DNA from: an uncultured Hormoscilla sp.
GTDB taxonomy: Bacteria > Cyanobacteriota > Cyanobacteriia > Cyanobacteriales > Desertifilaceae
Assembly (NCBI GenBank): GCA_963921275.4
Contig: OZ001293.3
Coordinates: forward strand, 5,376,001 to 5,440,000
DNA length: 64,000 nucleotides
Direction: 5' to 3'
Shown here: positions 1-63,648 of the stretch, piece after piece
Position numbering within the stretch: position 1 is the first letter of the stretch
Layout of the letters: each line of letters starts with the position of its first letter
The notes under the pieces: generated by a model
The model's database searches: none
The model's input: the letters and a program-made list of their open reading frames with translations, nothing else
Told to the model about the DNA's origin: nothing
Translations under genes and position numbers: made by a program

Positions 1-2007
1 ACAGGATTATCCGCTGATTTTTGTGGATGTAAATTACTCCGGACACCTGTGGATGTATCGGGAAATCAGCGATCGCAAACAGACGGAGTCGGCATTGCGG
101 GAAAGCCAGGCGCGATGGTACAAACTGATTAATAACACCGCTGACGGCATTCTGGTGGTGAACCGGGAGGGAATAATTCGCTTCGTCAACCCAGCGGCAG
201 AAATTCTCTTCGGTTTCCTGGCGAAAGAACTTCTGGGAGAATCATTTGGCATTCCCTTAGAAACCATAGATCGATGGCGAGATTTCCATCATGCAATCAG
301 ACTGCGGCTGGATCACTTTAGACATGCGGGTCGTGGCAATTAACTGGGAGAGCGAACCAGCTTATCTCGCTTCTTTGCGGGATATTAGCGATCGCAAGCA
401 AGCGGAAAAGGAACTGGAACAGGCTAAGGACCAACTCCAGGCTGTCTTAGATGCCGTGCCCGGCCTCGTTTCCTGGATTAGTTGTCCAAACAAAGAAGAT
501 TTAGAGCGCCTGGAATACCTTGGGGTTAACCAACATTTAGCCACTAGCTTCAACCTGGCACCAGAGGCATTTGTCGGTCAAAAGATTTGCTTTCTGAAGA
601 ACCGCACTCAGTTTCCCAAATTGATTCGCCAGTTTTTTGAGTCTGGAGATGAGCATATCTCCCAAGAAGTTACTCTATTTGTAGATGGTAAGCTTCGCAA
701 CTATTTAATTGTGGCTCAGAAGTATCATCAAGGTAAGGCAGCCGTATCCGTAGGGATTGATATTACTGGGCGCAAACAAATAGAATTAGAACTGACTCGG
801 TCGAAACAGTGGCTGCAATATTTACTCGCTTGTAGCCCTGCCGCGATCTACAGTCGCCAGCCGACTGGCAATTACCGCACTAATTTCATCAGCGAGAATG
901 TAGCATCTATGTTAGGGTATGAAGCAGCAGAATTCATGTTAGACAACAGCTTCAGGCTCGATCGCATTCACCATGACGATCTAGAACATATTTTAACCAA
1001 TTTATCAAGGGCATTGCCACGAGGTAATCATAGCCACGAATATCGTTTCCAGCATCAGAATGGCAGCTATCGGTGGCTGTACGAATAATTTAAGCTAGTC
1101 CGGGACACTGAGGGAAAGCAGAGAGAAATAATTGGTTACTGGGCAGACCGAAGAATTGCTCAAAGCTTCCCTAGAAGAGAAAGAAACCCTGCTCAAAGAG
1201 ATTCACTACCGTGTCAAAAATAACCTCCAGATTATCTCCAGCCTACTGCGGTTGAAATACCGAAAAATTCAGGACCAAGAAGCTCTAAAAGCCTTTACAG
1301 AGAGCCAGAACCGGATGCAAGTAATGGTCCTAGTTCACGAGTAGCTCTACCAATCTGATAATCTAGCAGACATTAACTTCCCAGAATATATCCAAATTTT
1401 GGTAGAGAAACTGTTCCGCTCCTACGGCGCGCGTGGTTTAACCTTTAAGGCAATACTCCGGACAGTTTTTAGACCCTATTTCGACTACAACACAAGGGTT
1501 GCAGCCAAAAGCGCCTTATTTTTTTCAATGTCTGCCCCAGGGCTAACTTGCCTAAAATTGCTCTATCGAGCAAAGGCTGACGCTGCGATGCGCGAGGGGT
1601 AGTGCGAGTAGCGCGCCCCGAGTGCATCGCAAGGCTTGCAGCTACGTACAGCCAAAACGGTCCGGACTATTGTTAAGGTAAACATAGAAAAAATATCACT
1701 GGCAATTGATACCGCCATTCCCTGTGGCTTGATCGTCAACGAGCTAGTTTCCAACTCCCTCAAGTACGCCTTCCCAGAGGGTCGCAGCGGGTGGATTTGC
1801 ATTAGCCTGACCAACAGTGACTCGAATGGGTATATCCTCAGCATCAACGATAACGGGGTGGGCATACCAGCAGAGTTCGATTGGACTCAGACCAAATCTC
1901 TGGGCTTGCAGCTGGTGCGCAAACTGACCAACCAGCTAGAAGGTGAGATTTCACTCGCTCGCAGCCAGGGGACTGAATTTAGACTGATATTTAGTAAACT
2001 AACATAG
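1..2007 (+). pseudogene. PAS/PAC sensor histidine kinase (HisKA_2 type), fragmented; 5' end outside window
   Basis: ORF pieces 23-343, 291-1088, 1132-1344 and 1636-2007 carry PAS repeats, an H-box ([17 protein letters not shown]) and HATPase motifs (NELVSNSLKYAF, DNGVG, SLGLQLV). Frameshifts, in-frame stops at 1086 and 1342, and a MITE at 1451-1672. Confidence 0.9.
1451..1672. mobile_element. 222-bp MITE with ~19-bp imperfect TIRs and 6-bp TSD
   Basis: TIRs CAATACTCCGGACAGTTTT / AAAACGGTCCGGACTATTG; TTAAGG duplicated at 1445-1450 and 1673-1678; contains a hairpin element at ~1585-1630. Confidence 0.85.
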
Positions 2008-2019
2008 AAGTAAGCATAG

Positions 2020-2352
2020 GTGAGAACCATGCCCGATATCAAAATCCTGGTGGTTGAAGATGAAGAAGTCGTCGCCTTCGATATCGACACTACCCTGACA
2101 GACCTAGGCTATGAAGTGCCAGCGGCAGTCGCCTATGACGAAGAGGCAATTGAACAAGCCAGTAAAATCCAGCCCGATTTAGTCTTGATAGATATCAGGC
2201 TGAAGGGAAAAATTGATGGTATAGAAGCGGCAGAGGAAATCAGCAAGCGTTTCCAGATACCGGTGGTGTATCTGACGACGCTCCCCAATCTTTCATCTTT
2301 CATTGGTATAATCGCTGCACCACTGATACATCAATTGCCCATCGGCTTGTAG
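2020..2352 (+). pseudogene. Response regulator receiver, C-terminally truncated
   Basis: ILVVEDE...PDLVLIDIRLKGKIDG...IPVVYLT, then unrelated sequence; the K-P motif is missing. Confidence 0.75.
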
Positions 2353-4541: not shown

Positions 4542-4781
4542 TAGTTGATAGTTGATAGTTGCTAGTTGATACCTTGGTTCCCAGAGGGAGTACGCGGCAG
4601 TGCCTTCCGCGTGCCGCGTCCTTCAGGACAAGAGCACGCGGAAGGTGCTGAGCTTTCGCCACGGACAGCTCTTGTCGCCCTCCGGACGCCTCGGACAGGC
4701 GAAACATCCTATGCAACGGATTGACAAAGAGATACTTTGAGAGTAATACCTATGAGGTAATATAATTCTCAGAAGAGGAAA

Positions 4782-9826: not shown

Positions 9827-10199
9827 CCCCCAATTCCAGGTTCGTAGTCAGGACTTTAGTCCTGCTGCTGCCGGTGGGTAGCAACTGTATAAACCCAACC
9901 GGCGATCGAGTATCAAGAGCGGTGTCCAAGGGATCGATCGCCAACATTGGTTCAATTCCCGACTGCTGCATTACGGTTTCCGACTGCTGTACTACGACTC
10001 TTGACTGTGTACTACAGTTCCCGACTATGTACTACGGTTTGTGCGATGATTGCACGAACGTCTCCCAATATACAAGGTTGGGTTTCGTGCCTCAACCCAA
10101 CCTTGTATATTGGGAGACGTGATAGACTGCCCCAACCTTGGTCGGAAAAGACCGCTTTGTAGCACGGGTCCCCACAAAAATCTCTCTGATAGAACTCGA

Positions 10200-13100
10200 A
10201 CAGTCGCCAGGGTCAAGGTAGCACGCACCTGCCACTCCTGCTGGTCAGACCACACTATTCCCTCCGAAGCGATTATTTTTAGCATGCGCTTGAATAGTCG
10301 TCTGTGGCTGGGAACTATGCCTAACCTTTGGCTAGCTGCCTCAGTGGTGAAGCGATCGCCTACCAAGTACGGCCACCCCAGCTCTAGCAATGCTTGCACT
10401 ATATACTCAATGCTTAATTCTTCTAAGCTAGCTGCGCTTTGGGAAGAGCTTTTCTGGTCTACCGTTGCTACCAACTCTGTCAGACTCTGGCTCAACTGCT
10501 GCTCTATTTCTACCGGTTCCAGCATGTCCGACGTTGGCAGCAGTCTACCCAAACACCCTTTTGCTCTCCATTCTACTTCGTACAACCAGTCATTAATAGA
10601 TTCCGCTTCCGTTCCCAGTAGCGTTTGAGGCGTTGCCTGTTTTACTCGCAACCCTTCTACTAGAGCAACTATCTCTCCCTCTGGACTCACCACGGTCACT
10701 TGCGTGCTTAGACTTTCTGCACTTTTTCCCTCTGACTCCGTTAGGGACGCGATCGCCCACAGTTCTACTCCCGGACGAGTATGTATTTCTAACTTGTCCA
10801 TCCCTACTGGCAAGTAGGTTTTCTCATTGTTTGTCTCAGGCAGTACGTGATATGTTATCTGGAACGCTGCATCTAACAATGCCGGATGGAACTGATACTC
10901 CCTTGCTTCTTCTACCAACCCTTGGGGTAACTTGATCTTCGCCACTGCCAAGTTGGCTCCCGCACGCAAACTTTTAACGCCTTGGAAACTGCTGCCGTAG
11001 TCAATCCCTATTTCCGGACATTTTTGATAATGTTGTTTTACCTCTATGTCCCGGTTACAATCAGCCCAGTACTTTTCTATCTCTACTTTCTTTTTACTTG
11101 TCTCGGTCTGGAGGGGTTTGATTTTCCCTGTCGCGTGGAGACGTCACTCTTCCCCTTCTTCGCTTTCCCTTGACTCCTGGCTAAATATTTGCCATTTGTA
11201 TGTTTCTTTCTCTAATAGTGTCAGGATTGTCTGAACTGAAAACTGTTCCCCTGGAGACCAACTAAAGCCACGTCCAATTACTAGGTCTTCTACCACTACC
11301 CTGAGAGTCTTAAATCGGTTCTGCGCTGCTGCCGCTGCTATTTCCAAATAGGCTGTTGCCGGAAATAGGGCTTTATTGAATACTTTGTGATCCCTGAGGT
11401 TGCTTAGCTCTTTTTACTCTAAATATAATTAAAATAGTTTTTGTTCCCCAGCAAAATTTACTTTTTCACCTAACAGAGGGTGGAGCTTTTTCGACAAATA
11501 CTGCTTTTTCTGGTATTTATTTATATTTTCTATCCAGTAACATTCTCTCTGGAATGGATAAGTGGGCAATGCTACTTTCCGACGTCCGTAATCTCTGTCA
11601 AACCCCGACCAATCTACTTGGGTTCCCCGCACGTATAACTGTCCCAAACTCTCCAGCATCTGCTGCCATTCTTCTTTTTCCGGGCGTAGCGAAGGCAACC
11701 ATACTCTTCTATCTTCCGACAAACACTGACGCCCAATACCCAACAGAATTGGTTTTGGTCCTATTTCTAGGAATATCTCATATTTTCCTTCCAGCAGCGT
11801 TTGCATACTCTGGGCAAACCGCACTGGTTGTCGCACATGTTCTACCTAATATGCCGCCTCCGCTATTTCATCTCCCACTTGCAGTCCGCTTACATTAGAT
11901 ATCAGTGCTTTCTGAGGCTTACTATAGGTTCCTTCTTTGGCTACTGCTTCAAAAGAAACCAACATTGGTTCCATTAATGGTGAATGAAAGGCGTGAGATA
12001 CCTGCAATTGTTTGGTTTTGATTCCTTCTGATTCTAAACTGCTGACGATCGCCCTTACTACTTCGGACTCGCCAGAAATTACTACGCCTTCTGGACCGTT
12101 GATGGCCGCGATCGCTACTCTATCTGCGTAGAGCGCGATCGCCTCTAGTGCCTCTGACTCAGAAGTCATGAGGGAAACCATCGCCCCACCAGCAGGCAAC
12201 TGCTGCATCAACCGCCCCCGCATGGCAATTAATTTCAGACCGTCTTCTAGACTAAAAACTCCTGCTATGCAAGCAGCCACGTATTCACCCACACTGTGAC
12301 CCATTACCACCTTGGGTTTAATACCCCAAGATTCCCATAATTTAGCCAGAGCATATTCCATAGCAAACAGCGCTGGTTGCGTATAAGCGGTTTGGTCTAT
12401 CAACTGGAGCGACTGCTGTCGTGAGAATGAACTTTCTTTATTCTCTAAAACTCCTTCTGTTGGACTATTATCTGGATACAGTACTCTAATAGAGGCACTT
12501 CTAGATATAAGGAGAGTATTTCATTGCATCGGTCGATCTTTTTTCTAAAGGTGGGTTGCGTCTCATATAACCGCCTTCCCATTTGTAGGTATTGAGACCC
12601 TTGACCCGTGAACATAAATGCGATCGGGCGACTTTCTGCTAATCCTTTCGCCACTCTGTTTGTCTCATTATCCTTGAGTAAATCTGCTAATCCTTTCTGT
12701 AACTCATCCCTAGACCCTGCGACTACTGCCAGTCTTTCTGCAAAATCTGTACGTCCTGTATTTGCACTGAAGCAAAGGTCTGGAAGCGCTGCTGGAGCAT
12801 CTGACTGCAAATAACTTTCATATTTTGTCGCCAGTTCCCTCAGAGCTTTCTTCGTCTGGGCTGAGAGTTTTAATATCTGTAGCGGACGCTGTAGCGAGCT
12901 CTTCTGAGTTTCCTGTTCTGGGGGATCTTCAAACACAATATGAGCATTAACTCCACCAATCCCAAAGGAACTCACTCCAGCCCGTAGTTGAATCACAACT
13001 CCTGCTTGTGTCTTCAATTGTTCCCATTCTTGCGTTTCCCTCACGATGTAAAATGGGCTTCCCTCTAGCTCTATGCGGGGATTTAAGTGCTGAAAGTTAA

Positions 13101-14150
13101 CAATTTTGGGCAATTTACGATGCTTCATTGCCAACATAATTTTGATCGTCCCTGCAATTCCTGCTGCTGCTTCGGTATGTCCAATATTACTTTTCACTGC
13201 CCCTAAACCACAATAGGATTTTTCATACCTTTCTAATCCATACTGTTGATATAGTTGTCTAAATCCTCGTTTCAGAGCATTAATTTCAATCGGGTCTCCC
13301 AAGGGTTTACCAGTCCCATGAGCTTCAATATAAGATACTGTATTAGGGGCAACATTTGCTTTTGTATAAGCTGTTCGCAGCACTTGCGCTTGCCCATAAA
13401 CATTCGGAGAAGTCAAGGTTCTGGCTTTCCCTCCGTGATTAACCGCACTCCCTTTTATCACACCGTAAATGCGATCCCTATCTTCTCTCGCTTTCCCCAG
13501 GAACTTTAATAAAATTACTCCAGCTCCTTCTCCCCTAACGTAGCCATCTGCCTCACTGTCAAAGGTTTTACATTGTCCTGTCGGGGATAACATCCCCAGT
13601 TGACTCATTTGGATGTATCTTGTTGGCGTACAACACACACTTACCCCACCCACAAGTGCCATTTCACATTCCGATTCTTTGATCGCCTTATTGGCATAAT
13701 GAATAGCTACTAATGAGCTTGAACAAGCTGTATCTATAGGGATGCTAGGACCATTAAAGTTGAACCAGGAAGAAATGCGATTCGGTAGCATACAAGTCCA
13801 AGTTCCTGTACCACTATGTTCGTTGACATTTTCTTCATATCTATTTTGCAATATCATAGTCGTAATTACAAACCCCGATAAATACACATACTTGACTTCC
13901 TGACAGTTCTAATAGTGAATAACCAGCATCTTCCAGACAAGACCAACTCAACTCCAACATTATTCTCTGTTGAGGGTCCATTCTTGTTGCTTCTCTGGGG
14001 GATATCCCGAATAACTGGGCATCAAACTGTTCTATCCCTTCAATCAGTCCTCCCCATTTACTAATCGTTTTATTTGGTACTTCTGGATTGGGCGAATAAT
14101 ACGACTTCCCACCTTCGGGCTGGAATTTCACTAATACTATTTACTCCTTT
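10200..14150 (-). pseudogene. Type I modular PKS fragment (KS-AT-DH plus following linker), multiply broken
   Basis: KS MDPQQR, DTACSSS, EAHGTG, KSNIGH; AT GQGSQY, GHSVGE, SHAFH; DH HPLLG, HPALLD. Split over at least 6 ORFs; 5' end cut at the ISL3. Confidence 0.92.
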
Positions 14151-14151: not shown

Positions 14152-15534
14152 GGTTCTTCTCAATCTAGTATGCTAAAATAGGTCTTGAAGTTGATGCGCC
14201 CGCTCAACGGGAGATCCTGAAAACCGGAAAACCTTTTCCAGCTTGACATTCAGCAACTAGCTAGTTGTGGTATAATATAGATGCGCGAAAAAACAGGGAG
14301 AATTTATAAGATGCCACGCTCGAATCTAAAAATACTAACAACATTGTTAAACATTCCAGAGGTGAAAGTTGTCGGGTATACTGAGACTCATTTAACAGAA
14401 GTGATGATGACAATTGAGGCAGAAAAAAAAGAAGCAATTTGCCCTAGATGTCATCAAAAAAGTCTTGCATCAGAACCATAATTATTTAATTAAGGATTTG
14501 CCCTGGGGAGAAAAAAAAGTTTTTCTCAAAATCAATCGCCGTGCGCTCGCTGTTTGAAACCGTGAGAAATTGTCATATGTAGAAGGTCGGCGTAAATGTA
14601 CGAAGAGACTGGGAGAACAAGTGGTTCGAGAAGTATTAAATGGGGATATTATTAATGTAGCGCTTCGGTATGACTTAAAAGAATCTGAGGTTCAACAAAT
14701 GCTATCTGGACAGGTGAAAATTGAACCGAACTAAAAAAGCTAGGGATCGATGAAATTGCATTGGTAAAAGGACAAGGTAATTATTTAGCTGTTTTAGCCG
14801 TGTCTCCTGGGAGCGCTATTCGCACTACCCAGGAGACGTGGATGTTGAGAATAGCAAACTTCTGGAAATAGTGAAGTCTCGGCGACAAGAAGATCTGCGA
14901 GAAGTCTTGCTATCATGGGGTCCCGAGGTGTTGAATGGTATTGAAGAAGTGAGTATGTGGAAACCGTATCAAAGTTTAGTGGAAGAATTGATGCCTAATG
15001 CTGAAGTTATAGCTGACCGTGTGACTAAGCAAGTAAATGAAGAGCTAGATAATTGTCGAAAACAAATCAAGAATGAAGCTAAAAAACTTAAGAGAAAGTC
15101 AGAAAAAGAAGAGATATCGTCGGTATTAAATAAAAGGAAAGCTCATAAAAAATCAAGAAAAATTTAAAGAAGAACAAGAAATTAAGCTGAAATAAATTCA
15201 AGAAAAAATTCCTAAATTGGGAAAAATGCACCGAGGAGCAGCTACATATATGAGAGGTCCGAAAAGTCGGAAAATCCTACCTTACAAATCCTCGATTGGA
15301 TCCTAGAGGCAAGAGAGGATTTTCCCGTGTGAAGACAATTATTCGATGGTTCGGAGAAATTGTAGGTGATTTTGAATCGGGGACAACTCAAGGGACTGTG
15401 TCAGGAATAAATAACCGTCTCAAGTTAATCAAACGTAAGGGATATGGATTCAGAAATCTGGAAAATTTTCGCTTGCGTAGTCTCCTTTCCTGGTGCTTTT
15501 AGCCTCAATCTAGCATACTAGATTGAGAAGAGCC
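14152..15534 (+). mobile_element. ISL3-family IS, degenerate
   Basis: 24-bp TIRs GGTTCTTCTCAATCTAGTATGCTA / TAGCATACTAGATTGAGAAGAGCC; CPRC finger, LGIDEI, GINNRLKLIKRKGYGFRN; no TSD seen. Confidence 0.9.
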
Positions 15535-17139: not shown

Positions 17140-17319
17140 ACTTGATGGTATAAATTTATTTTATATTATGTTCGCTTGCAAATCCAATGAATGTTATAAA
17201 TAGGCTATAACGGGTGCGATCTTAATACCATTTTGAAAAAAAATTGACAATTGTTTAAGCCTTATCATATTAGTCGGTTTTAACCGACTTTAGCTTTTAG
17301 CCGGGGGTTTGAACCCTCC

Positions 17320-17402
17320 GTGTCTCGTGGGTAGTGCGAGTACGATGTCCCCGGGGTAGTGCGACTAGCGCTCCCCGGGGACATCGAGCGACCACGAGAC
17401 AC
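17320..17402 (-). repeat. Two-level nested hairpin element inside a REP-like host repeat
   Basis: Outer arms GTGTCTCGTGG/CCACGAGACAC; inner arms CGATGTCCCCGGGG/CCCCGGGGACATCG at 17343-17386. Confidence 0.85.
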
Positions 17403-17416
17403 GAAAGGCGGGCTAA

Positions 17417-27714: not shown

Positions 27715-28238
27715 TAGATATTACACTGCATTTTGCGCTCTAATACTATTTCCTCATCTGTCAAGGGTGTCAGGTCAAAATGGACGAGCCACCTCAATAT
27801 CTGTCGCCCAACCTCCAGTTGCTCTGGGGTGGGCAGCTTATCAAAAGAATTAAGAATTTCTTCAGCTAAAGCGGTGTCTCCCGAGAGATCGATGTCTCCC
27901 GAGAGATCGATCTCTCCTGGGGCGAGGTTTCTCCTGGTCGCTCGATGTCCTCCGAGGCGAGGTGTCTCCTGGGGCGAGGTATGTCTCTGGAGCTCGATGT
28001 CTCCACCAGAGCGCTAATCGCACTACTCCGGAGACATCGTAATCGCACAAAAGGGGACATACCTCGCGCCTTACGCACTACCCAGGAGAAACCTCGCGCC
28101 TTACGCTCAAAAGGGAGGACATCGTAACCGCACTACCCAGGAGAAACCTCGCGCCTTACGCACTACCCAGGAGACATCGTATTCGCACTATTTCGGAGAC
28201 ATCATATTCGCACAAAAGGGGAGACACCGCGCAGTCAT
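27715..28238 (-). pseudogene. Small hypothetical gene interrupted at codon 3 by the nested repeat
   Basis: ATGACTGC[360 bp]TTTAGCTGAAG reads MTALAEEILNSFDKLPTPEQLEL when the insert is removed. Confidence 0.6.
27871..28230 (+). repeat. Eight-level nested hairpin element
   Basis: Eight left arms pair in reverse order with eight right arms around a central AGCGCTAATCGCACTA loop (28010-28025). Confidence 0.92.
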
Positions 28239-29130: not shown

Positions 29131-29418
29131 AAATGGTTGCTTGTGAATGGTAACTACTCGTTGGCAGTCTCGGGCTGGGAACGATGATTGAGAGGCAGAG
29201 CCTCCAGTTTATGATAGCTAGGAAATGATTATACCTTGATGTCTCTGGGGTAGTGCGAATAGCGCGTCCCCTCTGGGAGACATCGAAGTTGGCAGTCTCG
29301 GGCTGGGAACGATTATTTGACCAGTCGCGTTTGAAACCTTGGTGGTAAACTGCCAGATAGCTCTCCCAGCGCAGGATTGGCATAATTTTCTACCTCCATC
29401 AACTATTAAAACAGCCTC

Positions 29419-37975: not shown

Positions 37976-39955
37976 CTATAAAGAGCACTTGGGGCGAAGG
38001 GGAATGGCGATCGCAAACTCAGTGCCAGCATCGGGGTCCGAGAGGCAGCGCAATTGCCCGCCGTGCCGATCGACAACAATCTGGTAACTAATAGATAATC
38101 CCAAACCGGTCCCCTTGCCCACAGGTTTAGTAGTGACGAAACAGTCAAATAGGCGATTCTGCACATCTGAGGGGATACCCGAGCCATTATTCTTAATTTT
38201 AATCGCCACCTGGTCAGATTCTCCCAAACTGGTACTAATCCAAATTTTACCAGGTTGCGGGGCTGATTCTCTGATAATTGTTGATGATTTAACTCCTCCA
38301 TAGCGTCAATGGCATTGAGGAGGATATTCATAAACACCTGATTTAACTGACCGGGGTAACATTCCACCAAAGGCAGTTCACCATACTCTTTGATAATTTC
38401 AATACTAGGGCGATCTGGTTTCTCCTTCAGGCGACTGTCGAGAATCATCAAGGTGCTGTCAATGCCTTCATGGAGATCGACCTGTTTCATGTCGGCTTCA
38501 TCTAAGCGCGAGAAAGTCCGCAGGGACTTGACTATCTCCCTGATGCGAGCGGCCCCTACTTTCATCGACGCCAACAGTTTAGGAAAATCGGCGAGCAGGA
38601 ATTCCAAATCTATTTCTTCAGCAGCAGATTTAATTTCTGGATGAGGGTGAGGATAATGTTGAGCGTAAAGCTGAATCATTTCGATTAAGTCGGAAGCATA
38701 GTTTGTAGCTGGGGCAATATTACCATAGATAAAGCTAGTGAGATTATTGATTTCATGAGCAACTCCAGCGACCAACTGACCCAAAGCTGCCATTTTCTCA
38801 TTCTGAACCAACTGATTTTGAGTGTACTTGAGTTCTTGCAAGGCAACTGTCTTTTCCTGGACTTGCTGATCCAATGCATCTGTATGAATAAGCACCCGAC
38901 CTGTGAGAGGACGCAGCAACAGCACTAGACCTCCAGTACCCAGGAGACTGAGAAATGCGATCGCTATGCCGACAATTACCAGTTGCCGATTGACTGGCCC
39001 ATAAAGATCCCGGCGATCGATCTTGATAGCTAGCCCCCAGTTGCTATTTTTAATTGGCTCAATGGCAAGGATTACCGTTTCTCCTGAGGCGGCGGAAACC
39101 TTTAGCAACCCCGCCTCCCGTGATGCTACGGATTTTTCTATTGCCTGCAAGATGCCTCCCGATGCCTGAACTTGATTTCGCAAAGGGAAAAACAACTGCA
39201 CTTGGTTATTATTGACAGCGCCGAGAAGGGTTTCCCCAGTTTCTCCCAAACCCGTGTAATCTGTGACAATCCTTTGCAAACCGGTAATTTTGAACAAAAC
39301 GATGTCCGTTCCCACCCGCTGTTTAGAGATTGGGTTGATAATTGGGGATCCCACCACTAAATAGGACTCACCCTCTAGCCCGATCGGTTCTTCAACCAAG
39401 GCTTTTTTAGAACCCGCTGGCAGTATCGACCAAAATTCAGATGGAATAGGCAACCCCACCTGGGCGATCTGCTTACCAGTCGCGTCGAGGCGCGTTATCC
39501 CGACAACATCCTCGGCTTGGTTAAGGGCGTCAGTCAAGATGCTGGAGACTTCTTTACCAACCTCATCCAGGTTGATGGTTCCCCTGTTGTATTCTTGCAA
39601 CATTTTACGGGCTTTAGTGCGGCTGGCGATCTGCTCGCGGTGTCTCTCGGGAGCTCGATGTCTCCGGAGAGCGCTAATCGCACTACTCCGGAGACATCGT
39701 AGGAGCACTACCCGAGAGACACCGCGGCGACATCTTTAGCTCTGGAGAGGAATTGAGCAACCGTCATGGTGCGGGTATGCAGGGCGAACTGAATATTTCT
39801 TTCCTCCTGTTTTTTCAATTGGTTGTACAGGGGCATGATGCTCATCAGCGCCACGACGGCACCCATGCCTGCCCAAAAATACCCAGATCCCAATAAAGGA
39901 TCGGAAGACGCTGTAATTGTTTCGAGTTAGTGGGATAATTGTAATTGCTTTTCAT
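37976..39955 (-). pseudogene. Membrane sensor histidine kinase disrupted by a nested hairpin insertion and frameshifts
   Basis: TM-periplasmic-TM layout, QNEKMAALGQLVAGVAHEINN; HATPase tail in another frame; 89-bp insert at 39637-39725. Confidence 0.85.
39637..39725 (+). repeat. Two-level nested hairpin element
   Basis: Outer arms GCGGTGTCTCTCGGG/CCCGAGAGACACCGC; inner arms CGATGTCTCCGGAG/CTCCGGAGACATCG. Confidence 0.9.
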
Positions 39956-40027: not shown

Positions 40028-42034
40028 ATGATATCACTTTGGCGTGAATTTCAACCCTTAGCTGCGATCGCCGTCACCTCCACTGCCACTTTTCGCCTTC
40101 AGTTTGTTACGAACCTTTGGGTGCCAGCATCTTTAGGTAATATTCCCGGGACGCAGGTTTACCAAGGTTCTCTCAAAGAACATCTTGCCACCCTGTGGTC
40201 AAACCATCGGGCTTTAATCTTCTGTCTGGCAACTGGGGCAGTTGTGCGCCTCATTGCTCCCTTGCTAAAGGATAAATCTCGCGACCCCGCTGTCATAGTT
40301 ATAGATGAAGGGGGAAAATTTGTCATCAGTTTGTGTAGCGGACATCAAGGGGGCGCTGACAAATTAGCAAGGTTAATTGCACAGCAACTGGGGGCAACTC
40401 CTATCTTAACAGGGGCATCTGCTGCCTTACAATTACCAGGAGTAGATATGCTGGGGGTTCCCTTTGGTTGGCAGCGGGGCCCAGGGGACTGGACGGAGGT
40501 AAGTGCAGCAGTTGTCAGGGGAGAACCCGTCCAGGTAATGCAAGAAGTGGGCACAACCCTTTGGCAAAAGCATCTTCCCGAAGGACATCAATTCTCTTTT
40601 CACTTGGATAATGATAAAATATCCCCCCAAGGTAGGATTTGGATTAGCCACCGCCGATTAGATCCAGAGGATGATATCCTCCAGGTACAGTGGCATCCGA
40701 GAGTGTTGTGGGTGGGAATAGGTTGCGAACGAGGAACTTCTCGTCAGCTGATTGAAAGGGCAATTACAGAAGTGATGCAGACTCATGCTTTGGCAGAAGG
40801 GGCGATCGCAGGTATTGCGACAATTGACCTAAAAGCTGATGAAGTCGGGTTGGTGGAACTCTGTCGCGATCGCCTCTTTCCCCTACGCACTTTCCCCGCA
40901 GAAGTCCTGGGTTCTGTGGCTGTTCCTACCCCTTCAGCTGTAGTCGAAAAAGCAGTAGGAACTCCCAGCGTCGCCGAAGCAGCTGCTGTACAAGCTGCGG
41001 GTGCAGAACCTTTCGATATCTCTGGTCGCTCGATGTCTTCTGGTGCTGCATCTCGTGGGAGCGCTACTCGCACTACCCACGAGATGCAGCGCGCTAGTCG
41101 CACAAAAGAGAAGACATCGTATTCGCACTACCCCAGAGACATCGAAGCATCCCTATTGGTTGCCAAGCAAATTTTTAGAACAGAAGGGGAACCAGGGGTA
41201 GTCACAGTGGCGATCGCTCAAGCTGCTGTAGAATATACAGGACGCCCAGGTAAACTATTACTTGTGGGCATCGGACCGGGGCAATTAGACCAAATCACCC
41301 CAGCTGCTCAAACTGCGATCATTAGTGCCGATGCGCTCGTCGGTTATTCTCTCTATATCGACTTAATTGCTTCTTTACGGCGTCCTGGACAAATTGTCGA
41401 AGCATTTCCTATTACACAGGAACGCCAACGGGGAGAAAGGGCGATAGAACTTGCGAAATGGGGTTTAACAGTAGCAGTAATATCTTCAGGAGATTGCGGC
41501 ATTTATGGCATGGCCGGATTAGTCATGGAACAATTGCGATCGTCCTTTTGGGATGGGAAAATCCCCATAGTGGAAGTCTTGCCCGGCATCACAGCCATGC
41601 AAGCAGCAGCAGCGAAGGTGGGTGCGCCGTTAATGCATGATTTCTGTGCCATCAGTTTGAGTGACTTGCTGACACCTTGGGAGGTAATCGAAAAGCGCCT
41701 ACACGCCGCCGCCCAAGCATATTTTGTTACCGCACTCTATAATCCCCGCTCGGCTAACCGGACTCAGCAAATAGTCACAGCCCAGCAGATATTCCTACAA
41801 TACCGTAAACCAGATACTCCTGTGGCGATCGTCCGTTCAGTTTACCGAGAATCAGAACAAATTACCCTGACAACCCTTGACAAATTCCTGGAAATTCCCA
41901 TTGATATGCTCACCACCGTGCTGATCGGCAATCAAAGTACCTACATCCACAGTGATTGGATGATTACTCCGCGCGGTTATCTATCACAAAGTTCCGCTAT
42001 TAGCCCGGGGTTCAAACCCCCGCGTCATAGCTAA
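40028..42034 (+). CDS. cobJ: CbiG-CobJ fusion (precorrin-3B C17-methyltransferase)
   Basis: ATGAVVRLIAP, GHQGGAD, VGIGCERG, SVAEAAA, VGIGPG, SSGDCGIYGMAG, HDFCAISLSD, ITPRGY; ~43-aa repeat-derived insert. Confidence 0.93.
   Translation: MISLWREFQPLAAIAVTSTATFRLQFVTNLWVPASLGNIPGTQVYQGSLKEHLATLWSNHRALIFCLATGAVVRLIAPLLKDKSRDPAVIVIDEGGKFVISLCSGHQGGADKLARLIAQQLGATPILTGASAALQLPGVDMLGVPFGWQRGPGDWTEVSAAVVRGEPVQVMQEVGTTLWQKHLPEGHQFSFHLDNDKISPQGRIWISHRRLDPEDDILQVQWHPRVLWVGIGCERGTSRQLIERAITEVMQTHALAEGAIAGIATIDLKADEVGLVELCRDRLFPLRTFPAEVLGSVAVPTPSAVVEKAVGTPSVAEAAAVQAAGAEPFDISGRSMSSGAASRGSATRTTHEMQRASRTKEKTSYSHYPRDIEASLLVAKQIFRTEGEPGVVTVAIAQAAVEYTGRPGKLLLVGIGPGQLDQITPAAQTAIISADALVGYSLYIDLIASLRRPGQIVEAFPITQERQRGERAIELAKWGLTVAVISSGDCGIYGMAGLVMEQLRSSFWDGKIPIVEVLPGITAMQAAAAKVGAPLMHDFCAISLSDLLTPWEVIEKRLHAAAQAYFVTALYNPRSANRTQQIVTAQQIFLQYRKPDTPVAIVRSVYRESEQITLTTLDKFLEIPIDMLTTVLIGNQSTYIHSDWMITPRGYLSQSSAISPGFKPPRHS
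41013..41145 (+). repeat. Three-level nested hairpin element, in frame within cobJ
   Basis: TCGA...TCGA spacing of 129 bp; core TGCATCTCGTGGG-AGCGCTACTCGCACTA-CCCACGAGATGCA. Confidence 0.88.
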
Positions 42035-42557: not shown

Positions 42558-43555
42558 ATGGCTGCGCTACCCTATGGGATCAGCCTCTACTCGCACATTA
42601 GCAGTCAGTAAGGTTGTGGCCTGGTGCAGCGGGGGAGCAGGCCCCCATGGCGCAGCTATGGACACGCTTTGCCGGAGGCAAAGCCAGAAAACGTCTACCC
42701 GATCGCGTAGCGTGGCGCAGCCATACGAGTAGTGGAGCGTATGCACGACCTTACCGTACAAAAGCTAGAGCTTGGTCGCTGTAGAACTTCTTTATGGCTG
42801 CGCCCCCAGCGCAGCGCTATGGGTAAAGTGATGAGGGACTGAGGGGGTGAGGGGGTGAGGGGGTGATGAGAAAATGTTAATTTTTCGTTGATTCACAGAT
42901 ATTTTAAAATGTCGGCGTATTATTAATGGACCGATGCTCTAGAAGCTCAAGTTACTGCGAGGGCAGCTATGGCTGCGCCCCCAGGGGAGATATCTCTGCT
43001 CCTTGCTCTTGTCCCAAGGTCCATAGGGCACACAGGAGACATCGCAGCGCTATTGGTGCTAATTAAGAAGTGTGCCTGCTAGATGGCTCTTCCGTGATTA
43101 TGAGCGACACAACATGGCTGCGCCCCAGCGCAGCGCTATCAACAATCTTAAGGCTTATCGGAAACACTTCATACAACTAAAGGGCAGCATCACAAGACAA
43201 TTGCGTGATAATATATTAAATCACGCAATTGTCTTGTGATACTGGGTTGTGGTTTTCGTTTGAGCGCTCTTCGTCTTTATGTTTAGCTTGGATGAAAGTA
43301 TTGATTGCACCATTCTGCAGTTGTGAACTAGCTCCTGCACGACAGACAAAAGTATACAACCAGGAGCAAAAGTGACTGCTCTCAGGGGTAAGAAGTATTG
43401 CTGCGCCACGCTACGCGATAGGTAAGTTAGGTATTGGCGACCAGATTATTAGCCTCTACAAACCCAAAAAACGTCCCAATCACATAAGTGCTCAAGAGTG
43501 GGCAGATTTACCTGATACTGTGCAGGTATGGCTGCGCCCCCAGCAGAGATATCGA
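42558..43555. repeat. Cluster of ~24-27-bp dispersed repeats ATGGCTGCGCC...
   Basis: Copies at ~42558, 42702 (reverse), 42794, 42969, 43114, 43400 and 43528. Confidence 0.75.
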
Positions 43556-45475: not shown

Positions 45476-45841
45476 CTATATATTGAGAAAATTTCGCCAA
45501 GGAACTGAACAATTCGATGTCTCTGCGCCAGAAACCAGAGACAAAACGATCGAACCAAACAAGGCCGGGAAGAAACCATTAACTGTAAAACCGGGAGTGA
45601 AGTATCCGACCATCGAAAGACTGATCCCATTAACCACCAACAGAAACAGACCCAAGGTCAAGATCGTTAACGGCAAGGTGAGAATTGTCAGAATGGGTTT
45701 GACGATCGCATTAACCAACCCCATCACCGCCACACCGATGGCTGCGGCCTGCCAACTGGCGATCGTCAGACCTGGAACAAGATAGGCTGTAATTGTTAGG
45801 GAGATAGCAGCCAGTACCCAAGTTAAGAAGAAATTAAGCAT
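45476..45841 (-). CDS. Phage-holin family (YvlD-like) membrane protein with an altered C-terminus
   Basis: GLVNAIVKPIL.ILTLPLTILTLGLF.LVVNG; tail changes at a half hairpin element near 45515. Confidence 0.8.
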   Translation of the reverse strand: MLNFFLTWVLAAISLTITAYLVPGLTIASWQAAAIGVAVMGLVNAIVKPILTILTLPLTILTLGLFLLVVNGISLSMVGYFTPGFTVNGFFPALFGSIVLSLVSGAETSNCSVPWRNFLNI

Positions 45842-47965: not shown

Positions 47966-48165
47966 CCTGTGTCTCCCATGTATGTGCTTTTAGCGCTCCC
48001 GGGAGACACAGGGCCCATTGGCCGTTGTATGCATTACAGGGGTATTGTGGTCTCGATCGGCTTATGACCAATTATTAAATAAATCATTTAATGGCTAATT
48101 GTCCTGTTCGTGAAAAAATAAGCAGATGTTGTTTTGTAACAGGCAGTTGCCCCTAAACCGAAGTT

Positions 48166-50508: not shown

Positions 50509-51377
50509 GTGCGATTCGTTCTAGCCTAACGTGGTCAAACACGGAACGCTAGCCCGGTTTCATTAGCCAGGAACTCTGACCGCATGGGGGTTAAATTCCC
50601 CTCCCCCCAGGTACGGGGGTGACACCGGTCCTCGGTGCTACGAAGCGACATCATCGTGGTGCTAAGCGAGGACTCAAATGTAGGATAACTGGCAGCCTAA
50701 GCCGGTGACGCCGCTAGGAAAGATATCCAAGGTTAGAGCAGGCAAACATGTGCAAGCCTCGTTATAAGGAACCAGCGAAATAAGGCTATATGCGCTGGCC
50801 TAAAAAGGAAATGGTAGCTAGTATTAGTTTTAGACTCTGGCTAATATAGTACTCAAATAGCTCCCGGGGTATAGTGTGGACCTAAAGGTATCGCGAAATG
50901 TTGTTAGGGAACGAAGTAACCTCTCGTGTGCTGTCCATCAGGACAAGTTAGATGTTAAGCGCAAGCCACGGGGGGAGGGATGGCCCAAGAAGCGAATGCC
51001 CGGGGTAATTCCTGGGATAACATCTACAGTAATGTAGATGATGCTGGGTAGCCAGCGCTGACGTGGGTCGGTGATACTAGGAAGCTGCTGGAATGAGTAA
51101 TCCTAAAAAGCCACGGAACTAATCCGAAACGCAAGTGGAGGATAAGGTATGGATAACTGGTAAAACTGACTTGAAAATGGTGATACTAACGGTTATCAGA
51201 ACAACCACTCGCTAAACCAGGAAAGGGAAGAAAAGACAGGCGGCAAGGGCTAACGGAAGTAATTCCTATTAAGTCTACCTATGAAAAGGGCCTAGTACCC
51301 AGTAGCCGGATGCGGTGAAAATCGCAAGTCCGGTTCCTCAAGGGAGGGTCGGGAAGCGATTCCCGGCTCGACCCCAT
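50509..51377 (+). ncRNA. ORF-less group II intron, copy 2 (3' end at 51377 or 51379)
   Basis: Same length as copy 1 with one substitution seen by eye; inserted in a REP-like hairpin whose empty form is at ~53540-53590 (reverse). Confidence 0.92.
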
Positions 51378-51447
51378 CCAGCTACACGAACAAAGCCCGC
51401 CTGCGCGGGCTAGATTACTTGCATCATCGATGCTCTCCGGTCGCTTC

Positions 51448-52105
51448 GGGTGTGGTCAAAACCCGTCGATCTAACATGGGCCTTCCCAGTCGTCGGATCC
51501 CCCTTGCGATGTCTCGCGAAGGCCACGCTAAAAGCACTACCCAAGAGACATCGCACCCCCCTTAAAAAGCCTTAAAAAGGGGGGCTTCCATAGCCCCCCC
51601 CCTCGTTCCCTGGCTCTGCCTGGGAACGTAAGGGGGGGTTTGGGGGGGATCCCTATGCAACAAATGCATGACCACACCCGTTCGCAGTTAGGGTACATTC
51701 GCAGTTCGGGCACATTCGCAGTTCGCCCCGACCGGGCAGTTCTAGGGTACTTTTACCTCAACCGGCACCTATTAGCTGCTAACCGGTGCCCCACTGTTGG
51801 GGTTTAAAACCTCTCTGTTGGGGTTTAAAACCTCTCTGTTGGGGTTTAAAACCTCTCTGTTGGGGTTTAAAACCTCTCTGTTGGGGTTTAAAACCTCTCT
51901 ATTTTGGTTTTAAACCTCTCCATTGGGGTTTTAAACCTCTCCATTGGGGTTTTAAACCGGTGTGGTCTTGCGCACGTTGGCAACCGTTCACCGTGAGCTG
52001 TAAGCCGTTCGCCGTGAGCTGCGAGGGAGTTCCCCGTTTCCTGTGAGCCGTTCGCCGTTCTCCGTTAAGAGTTCCCCACTAATACAACCACTTTTGACCA
52101 CACCC
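51448..52105. mobile_element. 658-bp non-autonomous element with 14-bp TIRs and 9-bp TSD
   Basis: GGGTGTGGTCAAAA / TTTTGACCACACCC; GGTCGCTTC duplicated at 51439-51447 and 52106-52114. Confidence 0.9.
51794..51958. repeat. 21-bp tandem repeat, 8 units
   Basis: CTGTTGGGGTTTAAAACCTCT five times plus three variants. Confidence 0.95.
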
Positions 52106-54576: not shown

Positions 54577-54581
54577 AATTA

Positions 54582-55565
54582 TTAACCGAGAAGTATTGGG
54601 GGCGGGGCCACTGTACTGAGGACAGTCATGGGACCGCAATCTTTGAGGATCTGCATTTGCTGCTGGTTGCGGACTAGCAGGGCCCCAGCAAATCCCAGGG
54701 AGTTAACTGAAATTGATTGGAAATCTTCGCGCGATCGGGGGACGACGAGCATCCATTCCCTGGTAGCGAGGAGATTGTAGGCACCGGATTGCCTGTCGCC
54801 AGTTACCTCTATCCCTACAGCACCTAACAGATTATGATAGCACTGCTGGGTGATTTTAGCAGCCTCTTGGGGGGATTTTACCAGATCGGGGTCTCCCCGG
54901 GCGATCGCATGTCGGAACGGAAAGCTCGGTATCCTGCCCACGGTATCGTCAAATGTCGCCGATGCGATCGCCTCATCGATAGGTGTCTGAGGTCCGTCAC
55001 CGAGGGGCAGGGGGACAATTTGCAAATGCTTGTGTCGCTGACTAGCACCTGCAATTTTCCCACCATTATAAAATGCCAAGCACTCAAATTCAGCCATGCA
55101 AGCCCACATCGCCTCAAAATCATGCTCTGTGAGCCAGGTTTCCTGTTCCTCAAACGAGCGCGTGACTATCAGTATATGACTATCTACAACATTGTATTTA
55201 TTTAACAGACATAGGTGAGTCTCAGAAATGTCAGCAACAAACAGTTCCTCCTCGTAGGAAAGGAAGGGGTTAAATTCCTTACCCGAACTAGCGGTTTTCT
55301 TGTCTTGCTGCTTTTTGGCTGCATCCTTGCGGGCGAGGTTGGACAAGATGCGCACTAAAAAGCGAATACCAGAGTTTTCCACGAACTCGCACTCTGTTGG
55401 AATGGGTTGGAGGGCACCGCAGGCGAGTGCATGGGCGGTGCGTTCAGTTATCTTTTGCCACAAGCTGCCTGGTTGCAGCATCAAGATGTCCCGTGTAATT
55501 GGTTTTGACTCGGACATGGAAGTTCGATCGACTGTACTTGTGCCACTCTTTGATTTTAGCAGCAT
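54582..55565 (-). CDS. ATP adenylyltransferase (Ap4A phosphorylase family)
   Basis: FNPFL.YE, LLNKYNV, FYNGG.IAGASQRHKHLQ, NSLGFAG. Confidence 0.9.
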   Translation of the reverse strand: MLLKSKSGTSTVDRTSMSESKPITRDILMLQPGSLWQKITERTAHALACGALQPIPTECEFVENSGIRFLVRILSNLARKDAAKKQQDKKTASSGKEFNPFLSYEEELFVADISETHLCLLNKYNVVDSHILIVTRSFEEQETWLTEHDFEAMWACMAEFECLAFYNGGKIAGASQRHKHLQIVPLPLGDGPQTPIDEAIASATFDDTVGRIPSFPFRHAIARGDPDLVKSPQEAAKITQQCYHNLLGAVGIEVTGDRQSGAYNLLATREWMLVVPRSREDFQSISVNSLGFAGALLVRNQQQMQILKDCGPMTVLSTVAPPPILLG

Positions 55566-55611
55566 TATCTAGCGGTTTCAAATCCTTCACTACGCTTTTA
55601 ACCCGCCTTCA

Positions 55612-55651
55612 GTGTCTCGTGGGAGCGCTACTCGCACTACCCACGAGACAC
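55612..55651 (+). repeat. Single hairpin element in a REP-like host repeat
   Basis: GTGTCTCGTGGG-AGCGCTACTCGCACTA-CCCACGAGACAC. Confidence 0.9.
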
Positions 55652-55831
55652 CGAAGGTTCAAACCCCCGGCTAATAGCTAAAGTCGGTTTTAACCGACTA
55701 ATAAATTTTGAAAAATTTTCCTCTACGTGAAATTAGATCGTAATCAATTTAATGTTTTATTGTGGACCATTTTTTCAAAATGGTATTACAATAATGGGTT
55801 GTCGGCAACCAGCGCAATTCACAATTAGCAA

Positions 55832-56293
55832 TTAACAATTCACAATTAACAAACCACGCTGAACTGCTTCCGCTAATGCTTCTGATTTTCGGAGCTGTCC
55901 GATCTGGTAAATTTGCATCAGGGCTAGTAGTTCCATTTGCTCTGCTTCAGTCAGTCCTGTAGCTTTCCCCCTTGCTTGCAGTTCGCCGAGGCGATCGTTT
56001 TGCACGGCATCCATCTTAGCATCGGCTAATTTTAGTACCTCTGCATCTGAAAGACTTGATACTGGTGGGTAAAAGCTACTATCCGGCTGACCCTCTAATG
56101 CGGACCATAGCATTGACAGTGTATCTGCGATCACCTCTGCTTCGATGTACTCCGGGCGCACTACATGCGCTGCGCGCACGCTGCGCGATCGTACTGCCCG
56201 TCGCACATCGACATCTCGCAGGGTGGCATTTCCCAGCCATTTCGCCTGTTCGACTACGCTTTCTGGCAATGCAATCGTTACTTCAACAGTCAT
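55832..56293 (-). CDS. Hypothetical protein with an in-frame 66-bp repeat insertion
   Basis: LSDAEVL.LAD, RKSEALAEAVQRGL; TCGA-flanked insert at 56142-56211. Confidence 0.75.
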   Translation of the reverse strand: MTVEVTIALPESVVEQAKWLGNATLRDVDVRRAVRSRSVRAAHVVRPEYIEAEVIADTLSMLWSALEGQPDSSFYPPVSSLSDAEVLKLADAKMDAVQNDRLGELQARGKATGLTEAEQMELLALMQIYQIGQLRKSEALAEAVQRGLLIVNC

Positions 56294-61225: not shown

Positions 61226-61310
61226 GAATGAGTCCGAATGGGGAGGCGATCTTGGCATCAAGAAACCCGGGTTTCTAGGCGACCGGTGAAGAGGCAGGAG
61301 GAAATAGACT

Positions 61311-63648
61311 ATGAGCGATCGTCGATTAACGGTATCTGTGAAATTTCCCAATAATGGTAAAGGTTGGTGTTTTTTACTGGCGGATATAGTCAATGATATC
61401 CGCCATCTCGCCTCAGACAATAAAAAGGTTAGGGAGAAGGCTTTATGGGATCTGTTTGAGCTATGCTGGCATCAGGGAACTTTGTATTGGCAAGCAGCTT
61501 TCGTCGCACCATTTCTAATTGAACGCCTCCCACATGAGTCAGAACCAGAGCTATTGGAGATAATTCTGTGGATTTTTGCACCGCTGGCGTGTCGGGAGGC
61601 CCTACTGGTAATACGTCTGAGGAACTCTATTGGGCCCGTGCCACTTATGGGCAAGTTTACAGAGAAATCGATGTTTACCTCGATTTGCTGGAACATTCCT
61701 CGTCCGAAGTTAGAATTGCAGCAATATACATGCTTGCATTCTGTAAGCGAGATGCTGCGATGATTGGCGATAAACTCGGTATAAATTTTCGCAACGAACC
61801 AGAAGAAATGGTGAGAGCAACCATTCCGTATTGTCTGGCATTTATCAGCGACAATACGCCTGTAGATACTATGTTTTTTGAGGAAATATTAAACTCAGAT
61901 GATGCCGAGATTGTGAAACTAGCCGCAGGGAACACTCTGGCCTATGTTGCTGGCGAAAATATGCCGGAGTATGCCTTGTCAATCCTCCAGCGTCTGTGGG
62001 AAAATACTAAGTTAGTGGATAGACTCGCTAAGCATTCCGATCCTATTGAAACAATTCATGACAAGAGATTACTAGACTTTTTGAAGCCTCTTAACGATCG
62101 GCAAATTGCTAAGATTATCCCCAGGATCTGGCAAGAATGGGGTGAATACTACCGCGATTTGGATGCGATCGAACTAGCTTTCGGAGACCTATTTAGGAAA
62201 AAGAAAAAAGCCGAGATCCTTGTTCTCAGGGACTTTCCCAATTTTGAATTTTGAATTTTGAATTTTGAATTGCTTACCCCCCCCTCGCAATGACGCCCTA
62301 TATCCAAAACCTTGAAGTATTGGGACTACCGGGACAAGAACAGCGATGGCGACGATCGTATGCCAGTAGTGCCGTGATTGATATGGCTGCTGATGGGTGG
62401 AAGTGATGCCAACTTGATGCAGTGAGTGCCGGTGCTTTTGGCTTCGGGGACCGGCTAATCCGGGATTGGGGCTGCGCAACAATACTCAAGTTATTCGCTG
62501 CGATATATAGTAGACTTTGGTGTTTATACCTTGGCGGATGATGGTGAAACACAGAATTTGTACGGCTATTTCAGTTGGGAGCCTACAATTGTCGTACAAT
62601 AAGTCTGTTTGCTTGAGCCGGTATAGTAGAGCGCAGAGCTTGTAGGGTGCGCCAGCGAAAGCGTAACGCACCAATTCCTACCACTATCATCTAAGGGCAA
62701 ACCGTTTTTAAAACGGTTTGCCCTTTTGAGAAAGGAGCGATCGCATCCTATAAGTTTCCTAACTTGGCTTGAGAGTACTGGCAAGCCAGATTAATGACCG
62801 TTAAAAAAACGCAAAGCTGCGATCGCTATTTCTCTGGGGATGGAGATGTTGCGATCGCACCCGAGATCTCGACTTGGAGAATTCCAGTCATAACAAAAAT
62901 AGTTACAACTCAGATACAACTCAGATACAACTCAGATACAACTCAGTCGATCTCGAGTTAAACCATTGCTCTCACCTGAAATGTAGGCTTTTCTGGAAAA
63001 ATCTAAGTCATAACGAAAACAGATACAAGTCAGATACAAGTCAGTCATTCTCGGGTTTGAACTCGGGTAGCTGTGGAGGGGTGTGGTCAAAACCAGTTGG
63101 TAAAGAAAAGGTAAAATTATGACGATTTCACTGGTTGATAAGCGGCTCCCGCCCGGCTTTGTATTATATTTACTACATGTAAACAGAAATTTAGTATTAC
63201 GTTCGCTACGATGTAATCTGTCAGCGTCGATCGCGTTTTGTATTATATACTACAAATAATCCGCAAATTTAGTATTACGTTCGCTACGATGTAATCTGTA
63301 AGCGTCGATCGCGTAGGCGTAGCCGTGTGCTCGGCGTCTCCACCGAAGCACTATTCGTACTACCCAGGAGACATCGGCAGCGCAATCCTTTTGGCCAGGA
63401 TATCAACTACTTTTGACCACACCCAGAAAAAACTCCCCGAGGGAACAACCATCCATGACTTGACAGATAGTCAGCAACTTGTGTTAAAGTTGATTGCAGA
63501 TGATACCAGTACTGGACAAGAAAGTCGTTACAGGTATACATTAGAATCGATCGGGATTAGCAGTCCAGTCCATCGAAAGGATGAGTCGTCTGCACGGGAA
63601 AATCTGATGCGCTTTCTCAATGGAGAGAAGCTGGAATATGATAGATAG
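61311..63648 (+). pseudogene. HEAT-repeat paralog, frameshifted and split by a 1.2-kb insertion
   Basis: Similar to the upstream gene throughout; resumes at KKLPEGTTIHDLTD after 63425. Confidence 0.8.
63079..63424. mobile_element. 346-bp element with GGGTGTGGTCAAAA TIRs
   Basis: Same TIRs as 51448-52105 with a different interior. Confidence 0.75.

Follow-up and report, generated by a model that had tools for sequence, protein, structure and literature searches.

A family of very small mobile hairpins in the sponge-symbiont cyanobacterial genus Hormoscilla

The DNA analysed here, referred to as the window, is a stretch of 64,000 nucleotides (G000:C1:5376001-5440000) from the 7.03 Mb, HIP1-rich genome (G000) of a member of Hormoscilla, a genus of sponge-symbiont cyanobacteria. 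Along it lie copies of a small hairpin, single or nested, within genes, in a remnant of the insertion sequence (IS) ISL3, in other repeats and beside the 6S RNA (Table 1). This hairpin is non-coding mobile DNA of about 45 bases that has been inserted at hundreds of sites, and it represents a real, genus-restricted family of very small mobile hairpins. Comparisons drew on four further genomes of the same genus (G001-G004), with about 2.73 Mb of sequence compared, mostly from G002; the four closest Hormoscilla homologues of a window protein are 89-91% identical to it, and the next is at about 70%. Short-read contigs, whose runs possibly represent the source sample, agree without differences with long stretches of the window, including about half of an eight-layer nest of hairpins.

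The form named core A is 44 nt long and combines a 14-bp stem with a conserved 16-nt core. Oriented on its best-folding strand it reads CGATGTCTCCTGGG TAGTGCGANTAGCGCT CCCAGGAGACATCG, and the feet of its stem are conserved as CGATGTC...GACATCG. With at most two mismatches, the core TAGTGCGANTAGCGC occurs 11 times in the window, where 100 shuffles gave 0.27 on average; one of the 11 (36350) lacks a stem. A sequence-only reading of the window had listed about 11 loci with a conserved 16-nt loop and had quoted four stems; the loci were recovered, and all four stems are present. The G000 genome contains 139 exact cores and none of the reversed control, 224 units with at least 12 of the 14 pairs, and 645 loci with one or more half-units. 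All lie on the main contig, the small contigs being free of copies. A scan based on structure only found 128 perfect 14-bp stems around a 16-nt loop; the other loop lengths between 3 and 40 gave 1-36 each. No Rfam family matches the hairpin, and its copies show no replichore bias in 500-kb bins, the GC skew of this genome being unclear.

The 16-nt loop is not open: the strand that reads TAGTGC gives five more pairs, a T.G pair among them, and a 5-nt apex, the pairs that close the apex on one strand being G-C, T.G, G-C and C-G. The T.G pair is kept in 149 of 150 independent core-A copies, while an inner-stem switch from G-C to A-T occurs in 14 of the 150. Under DNA folding parameters the top strand is the more stable one in 137/150 copies. 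The hairpin thus carries, in its bulge and the invariant T.G on one strand, the strand-specific stem irregularity typical of repetitive extragenic palindromic (REP) sequences and their REP-associated tyrosine transposases (RAYTs). Stem positions 2, 3, 8, 10, 11 and 13 vary freely, and positions 1, 4, 5, 6 and 7 and the inner core are conserved in sequence, a position-wise pattern that would be expected of a recognised structure. There are 45 stem types among 75 perfect copies; inner-arm variants occur in combination with many stems, and core variants stay linked to particular stems.

Covariation between the arms, as first proposed from the letters of the window, is real and is not an artefact of choosing paired copies. 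When copies were selected by core only (126 of the 139 exact cores, the other 13 being nested or divergent), 330 double changes were complementary, 14 were non-complementary and 89 changes were one-sided. An alignment of 50 sequences, pre-selected for pairing, pairs in 97% of its cells, and its covariation score is higher than that of any of 500 shuffles or of any slid control. Changes of this kind also appear where no new insertion has taken place: 14 cross-genome pairs of the same filled site, whose flanks are 4.9% apart, contain four compensated differences (three distinct events) and 14 one-sided ones, against a roughly estimated chance expectation of 0.13 compensated differences, and a set of paralogues catches a mismatched intermediate of arm repair. 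The core is inverted in 2 of the 25 hairpin copies in one host repeat, with flanks and tail unmoved. Nine of 150 copies have TT upstream without an AA tail and have, on average, lost the target motif on that side, as expected of a flipped core, and some loops are now perfect palindromes. Arm homogenisation and spacer inversion are given as known products of template switching in two papers (PMC8604942, PMC8794818). The pattern suggests that, after insertion, template switching during replication copies arm onto arm and sometimes flips the core, so that diverging stems remain paired. Because both products arise in place in this way, the covariation is partly mutational, and covariation alone is therefore no proof of selection on folding, a warning that applies to stem covariation in repeats at large. 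The unrepaired T.G pair and bulge are a stronger sign of selection.

Mobility is shown by empty sites, which exist in paralogous repeats as well as at orthologous positions in relatives, and in both directions; presence of the hairpin differs among genomes at dozens of sites. Within the window, empty counterparts were found for the loci at 1585, 14800, 17320, 39637, 41013 and 63335, and no site-specific filled/empty pair was obtained for 29258, 45515, 51507, 55612 and 56142. Across the genome, 61 non-redundant filled/empty pairs were collected, from which six mis-parsed rows were removed. In the remaining 55 the net gain equals the hairpin plus one base in 36, plus two in 8, exactly the hairpin in 5, minus one in 4, and plus three and plus four once each. 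There is no constant target-site duplication (TSD), a trait shared with IS200/IS605 elements: 11 junctions are clean, 7 have a 1-nt ambiguity, and the CG, GC or TCGA duplications suggested earlier find room in only 4 of the 55 pairs, which allow an overlap of 2-3 nt, apart from 3 tandem artefacts. A comparison with reads gave no new empty site, and a comparison of that type cannot show excision.

The junctions follow a regular geometry. In the +1 class outside core D (a further core, described below), the next target base is C in 22/35 and the tail is AA in 25/35, so that the usual event reads as GATG...CATC-GAA after a target C. The GAA tail is present in 73/150 copies, 60 of which have a C-G closing pair, counts that are inflated by shared ancestry; the AA tail tracks the foot type, occurring in 62 of 104 copies with G at position 2 and in 12 of 46 otherwise. 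Junction dinucleotides in the 55 pairs include CG (12), CC (7), CA (6) and CT (2), the last two being those at which REP/RAYT systems cleave, and HIP1 is rarely the site (0/55 in GCGATCGC, 3/55 at CG|ATCG). Insertion is oriented: both filled and empty sites have a weak RATGW motif at -10 to -6, confined to the folding strand, and the insertion point is 5-6 nt downstream of it. On that one strand, A is found at -9 in 100/150 and T at -8 in 98/150 independent sites, and AT occupies -9/-8 in 22 of 52 empty sites compared with a background of 7%. A role of RATGW as a guide was rejected, as arms fit their own targets no better than shuffled ones (p=0.44). Local templating of the arms from the target was rejected as well: arms share no excess of words with their own flanks. 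Complementarity past the foot extends by a single base (at -1/+1, 78 cases where 56 are expected) and is not in excess at positions 2-6.

The same feet enclose at least four further cores: core B, a T-run with a mini-hairpin (41 nt); core C (54-55 nt), with a window example at 42988; core D, a 56-nt near-palindrome; and core E (53 nt). The family spans 41-57 nt, and its distinct non-nested members in G000 number 225 for A, 27 for B, 44 for C, 48 for D (both strands counted) and 9 for E. All cores show the upstream target bias, and +1 is the commonest or joint commonest gain in all five, the pairs for B-E being few (6, 6, 3 and 6). The AA tail occurs in 21/27 core-B, 38/44 core-C and 0/48 core-D copies. 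Foot-closed hairpins mark 593 loci, compared with about 101 by chance. Since four other cores share feet and geometry with core A, what is moved is probably set by the feet and not by the loop, whose conservation would mark one lineage. Likewise, the common ends and landing geometry make it likely that the five hairpin types depend on a single enzyme. The sequence-only reading had proposed the folded hairpin as the selected or mobile unit; one folded strand is indeed singled out, and the loop is not the universal determinant. Its three degenerate loci also resolve differently: 42988 has the same feet around a different core, 56142 is a hairpin with a micro-repeat in its apex, and 45515 is decayed or due to chance.

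Nesting is regular too. Insertions into the loop fall at offset 25 in 94/138 and at offset 30 in 26/138 cases, and insertions into the stem at offset 11 in 6/6. Within the hairpin, the target motif is best matched at offsets 11 and 30, which rank in the top 2-4% of random sites. In the folded strand, offsets 25 and 30 are found where unpaired bases end on their 3' side, a hint that the target may be single-stranded.

Table 1. Members of the hairpin family and related sequences in the window
Feature	Position	Strand	Context and remarks
Core-A hairpin, 44 nt	1586..1629	+	Within a 220-bp repeat; empty paralogues, net +44
Core-E relative, 53 nt	4598..4650	+	Overlooked by the sequence-only reading; weak model match (E 0.008)
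Core-A hairpin	14798..14841	-	Within ISL3 remnant; empty ISL3 copies in G000 and G002
Two-layer nest	17318..17404	+	Within GGTTTGAACCC REP-like repeat; empty in two relatives
Eight-layer nest, 358 nt	27872..28229	-	About half matched without differences by a short-read contig
Core-A hairpin, 49 nt	29237..29285	+	Altered inner right arm
Two-layer nest	39638..39724	-	Net +89; breaks a histidine-kinase frame; empty in G001
Three-layer nest	41014..41144	-	Net gain of 132 nt (44 in-frame codons) within CbiG-methylase gene (40028-42034); two relatives have the empty site
Core-C member	42988..43044	-	Feet as core A, other core
Foot-like remnant	45515..45551	+	Decayed or chance; no model match at E<=1
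Core-A hairpin	47967..48011	+	Abuts 3' end of 6S RNA (47779-47965); common to G004
Core-A hairpin	51507..51553	-	Altered inner right arm
Core-A hairpin	55610..55653	-	Within GGTTTGAACCC REP-like repeat
Core-A hairpin	56143..56210	-	SDR-like micro-repeat inserted in apex
Core-A hairpin	63332..63376	-	Within a repeat; inner stem switched from G-C to A-T; net +44 relative to an empty paralogue

Among the genomes sampled, the hairpin is found only in the genus Hormoscilla. The exact core occurs in 4/4 same-genus genomes and 0/36 others; a covariance model matches 2 of 151 genomes, both Hormoscilla, and none of the 149 others of the order; the foot pattern is confined to G000 among 401 genomes. Viral contigs, plasmids and phages gave no matches, and metagenomes gave none for the full consensus and three for the core, one of which is a Hormoscilla-like nest and two of which lack stems. 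These searches are samples, not proof of absence outside the genus. Among the papers listed on Hormoscilla genomes and repeats, and in the passages covered of PMC6520454, no description of the hairpin was seen.

The hairpin may well move as a folded single DNA strand, acted on in trans by an enzyme that would most likely be of the HUH (Y1) kind, a proposal to which we give slightly less than an even chance. Such a reaction is favoured because the oriented, duplication-free insertion of an irregular hairpin is what this enzyme family does; according to PMC6006769 and PMC8266576, insertion without a TSD and strand-specific hairpin recognition are how IS200/IS605 and REP enzymes work. HUH-type chemistry, which falls short of even odds, would proceed as follows. 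The enzyme would read the foot duplex together with a strand-specific irregularity (in core A, the bulge and the T.G pair), free the top strand and attach its 5' end at a target nick. Spreading would continue only for copies that are still able to fold, and the core would be conserved as a result.

Several observations weigh against this proposal. The junctions are not clean, as in 30 of the 55 pairs 1-7 bases at the junction depart from the empty site, differences that stem partly from strain polymorphism or later repair. A fixed tetranucleotide beside the left end, the hallmark of Y1 enzymes, is absent (the commonest is found in 3/55), and another micro-repeat of G000, which serves as a positive control, does show one (CCGA, 186 sites). 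The target motif fails to predict the main nesting offset, 25 (top 26%), and the two have only TG at -8/-7 in common. None of the 12 Y1 loci from five genomes carries the hairpin, and several of them carry other repeats; the one apparently intact RAYT of G000 occurs in 2/5 Hormoscilla genomes and also in genera that lack the element. No free single-stranded form was observed in the assembled contigs, the only material covered.

The wider search for a mobiliser covered the remaining families. No feet lie near the apparently intact RAYT of G000, and the hairpin is present at 0/5 RAYT-homologue loci, the relatives being draft genomes. An integron attC or tyrosine-recombinase route is disfavoured, as PF00589 was undetected in four of five Hormoscilla genomes (G000, G001, G002 and G004) with 14/14 controls positive. 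No Y2/IS91 enzyme was found in the five genomes, though no control gave a match either; IS110 gave four matches in short frames, and five IS607 TnpA copies are present, one of which was inspected by eye at its ends and has no foot there. A search of long arm-to-arm spans for an autonomous form, with an open reading frame (ORF) between the arms, turned up only passenger introns and one IS, and no multicopy open-ended foot cluster is tied to an IS. Among 70 ORFs inspected by eye in genes flanked by hairpins on both sides there is no recurring nuclease; two transposase-like frames are among them. Membership in the DDE-type MITEs (miniature transposable elements with inverted repeats) was likewise rejected: the 14-bp arms are terminal inverted repeats, as in MITEs, and there is neither a constant TSD nor an IS with the same ends.

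In three relatives, a subclass-2.1-like RAYT is followed by a hairpin with CGATA...TATCG feet (L224, L226, L227, L012:2760-2810), and three of four copies of that hairpin have an AA tail. The CGATA...TATCG hairpin is absent from G000, which keeps only a fragment of the corresponding RAYT gene. The RAYT with this TATCG-AA hairpin is a weak lead to a candidate mobiliser.

A more specific version of the strand-transfer proposal, which we consider doubtful, holds that the hairpin travels as a 45-nt dumbbell of covalently closed single-stranded DNA and that the enzyme carries any core between the feet. The usual ends, when joined, would give CATC-GAA-GATG, in which a C(GAA)G mini-hairpin caps the stem; the enzyme would read the foot, carry a core of 41 to more than 300 nt and insert it 5-6 nt past RATGW. 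The GAA tails and the geometry common to five cores are consistent with this. According to PMC13037366, d(GCGAAGC)-type caps are exceptionally stable and nuclease-resistant, and the paper asks for two G-C pairs in the cap, where the hairpin has one. If true, the system would be a minimal, cargo-tolerant transposition of a new kind, and an enzyme that accepts any cargo between two short feet would offer a compact insertion tool.

Movement through RNA is an unlikely alternative, in which reverse transcriptases (RTs) of group II introns prime at a target nick, copy a small hairpin RNA and add an A-rich tail without template. The genome has 93 RT-domain matches and 251 exact 5' ends of group II introns, about 220 of them without an ORF, which amounts to heavy RT activity available in trans; ORF-less introns of 0.8-0.9 kb lie in the window itself at 29979-30874 and 50488-51438. 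Three group II introns sit inside the hairpin core, whose sequence resembles their target. The fixed 5' junction and more variable A-rich 3' junction fit the polarity of primer extension, and the T.G pair could be U.G in RNA. Against these points, the target profiles of the introns (IBS1/IBS2) do not match the reconstructed element targets at any offset or on either strand (best means -8.9 and -10.2 bits), the dependence of the AA tail on foot type suggests inheritance and not random addition, and orientation downstream of genes is unbiased.

It is also rather unlikely that no dedicated enzyme exists and that replication or repair copies the hairpin by template switching at stalled forks, through microhomology between target and arm. 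These hairpins are demonstrably subject to template switching, the left arm is similar to the target consensus, and no cognate transposase was found. Against this, targets fit their own element's arm no better than another's, as noted above, and shared words are not in excess; the +1 geometry across five cores and the three fixed nesting offsets are hard to obtain without a measuring protein, and the family was not found in the 149 other genomes of the order.

Donation of a half-hairpin, with one arm synthesised from the other at each insertion, had been raised by the sequence-only reading and appears improbable. It would account for stems that are extremely diverse yet paired, and for inner-arm variants that combine with many stems; the arm and its own flank, however, have no extra sequence in common, complementarity stops one base past the foot, core variants are linked to particular stems, and compensated changes occur at orthologous sites without new insertion. 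That the hairpins are host-selected RNA or DNA signals (terminators, stabilisers or protein-binding sites) which covary for function is very improbable, for although some copies are common to several genomes, one abuts the 6S RNA and folding is specific to one strand, dozens of sites are filled in some genomes and not in others, neither orientation prevails downstream of genes, copies break genes and IS remnants, and Rfam holds no matching family.

How palindromic repeats below 100 nt (REPs, the small dispersed repeats or SDRs, and Rickettsia palindromic elements or RPEs) move is a long-open question, to which this family brings dozens of empty sites, an oriented target rule, an end geometry common to five cores and a predicted intermediate. 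The hairpin works like SDR- and REP-type repeats and fails the defining tests of REP, IS200/IS605 derivatives, MITEs and, by length, SDRs. SDR1-8 of the Nostocaceae, reported by Elhai et al. in 2008, are said to be very small mobile repeats of 21-27 nt that show compensatory changes, nest in themselves and insert into genes and other repeats; we know of no mobiliser for them. By this description, the two are alike in small size, cyanobacterial host, compensatory changes, self-nesting and insertion into genes and repeats, whereas the hairpins are about twice as long (44-57 nt), are not HIP1 residents, have an oriented upstream target motif and share feet among five cores. It is by length that they fall outside the SDRs, and the two kinds may overlap. 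SDR5 itself inserts precisely into HIP1, according to PMC4390886 and PMC5861425.

With REP/REPIN-RAYT systems, as presented in PMC3116915, PMC3733652, PMC6006769 and PMC8266576, the hairpin shares a strand-specific imperfect fold, high copy number, lineage restriction, compensated stems, occasional in-frame intragenic copies and, in core A, a GTAG word. It differs in that GTAG lies 13 nt inside the hairpin and is partly paired, instead of unpaired 5' of the foot, and is missing from cores B-E; in that copies are single or nested and not doublets, with no REPtron found; and possibly in its cleavage site, the junctions being mostly C|G and not CT or CA. IS200/IS605 ends, as described in PMC6006769, resemble it in oriented insertion without target duplication, target information on the 5' side only and unpaired bases; here, however, one hairpin is the whole element, and there is no adjacent fixed tetranucleotide, guide covariation or TnpA with these ends. 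RPEs, of about 150 bp, are also palindromic repeats that add in-frame peptide (PMC10969869). The yeast mitochondrial GC42 elements are 42-nt hairpins with flanking substitutions and merging units; they have an AG duplication and, in contrast to the present case, conserve their stems while their loops vary (PMC4478555).

The hairpins also affect genes. Open frames of 200 codons or more, some of which may be spurious, contain 71 of the 320 complete loci, compared with 43% of random positions. Hairpins in long ORFs are antisense in 59 cases and sense in 12, and mostly encode a Ser/Thr-rich peptide. Just downstream of genes there is no orientation bias (26 versus 25), and the target motif predicts no such bias either (about 48:52). 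Because of these contrasts, we propose that the survival of hairpins within genes is filtered by the encoded peptide, selfish DNA thus adding 15-residue blocks to proteins under a visible peptide filter. The three-layer nest at 41014 adds 44 residues that the CbiG-methylase protein lacks in two relatives. In-frame nests were also seen in housekeeping genes, including an RpoB-like frame (G000 C1 3734279-3737929 and others). The copy at 47967 starts two bases past the end of the Rfam 6S RNA match (region 47779-48011) and may alter the 3' end of this RNA.

Among the repeats that host the hairpin, the ISL3 remnant had been named correctly, and the supposed MITE is a REP-like repeat. This GGTTTGAACCC repeat (window 17247-17414 and 55560-55700) hosts 25 hairpin copies and flanks IS200-type TnpA genes in three relatives (L221-L223); in L109 a different hairpin occupies the same position of the repeat. 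Two other micro-repeats of G000, with different and sharp targets, look like separate systems. An SDR5-like repeat of 21-24 nt is found in CG(A/T)(T/C)C contexts at about 115 distinct sites, many of them in a hairpin apex (for example, window 56143-56210). A 15-nt micro-insert (T-run, mini-hairpin, T; for example, G000 C1 2943960) has 186 distinct sites, and directly 5' of it stands a near-invariant CCGA, as would be expected if a Y1-type enzyme chose the target.

The small contigs of the assembly look foreign (C3 has 17.6% GC, C5 has eukaryote-like ORFs and C6 is phage-like), and none carries the hairpin or HIP1. In the window, a polyketide synthase split over several frames (KS, AT, DH, methyltransferase HTH) extends over 10025-13887 and adjoins the ISL3 remnant.

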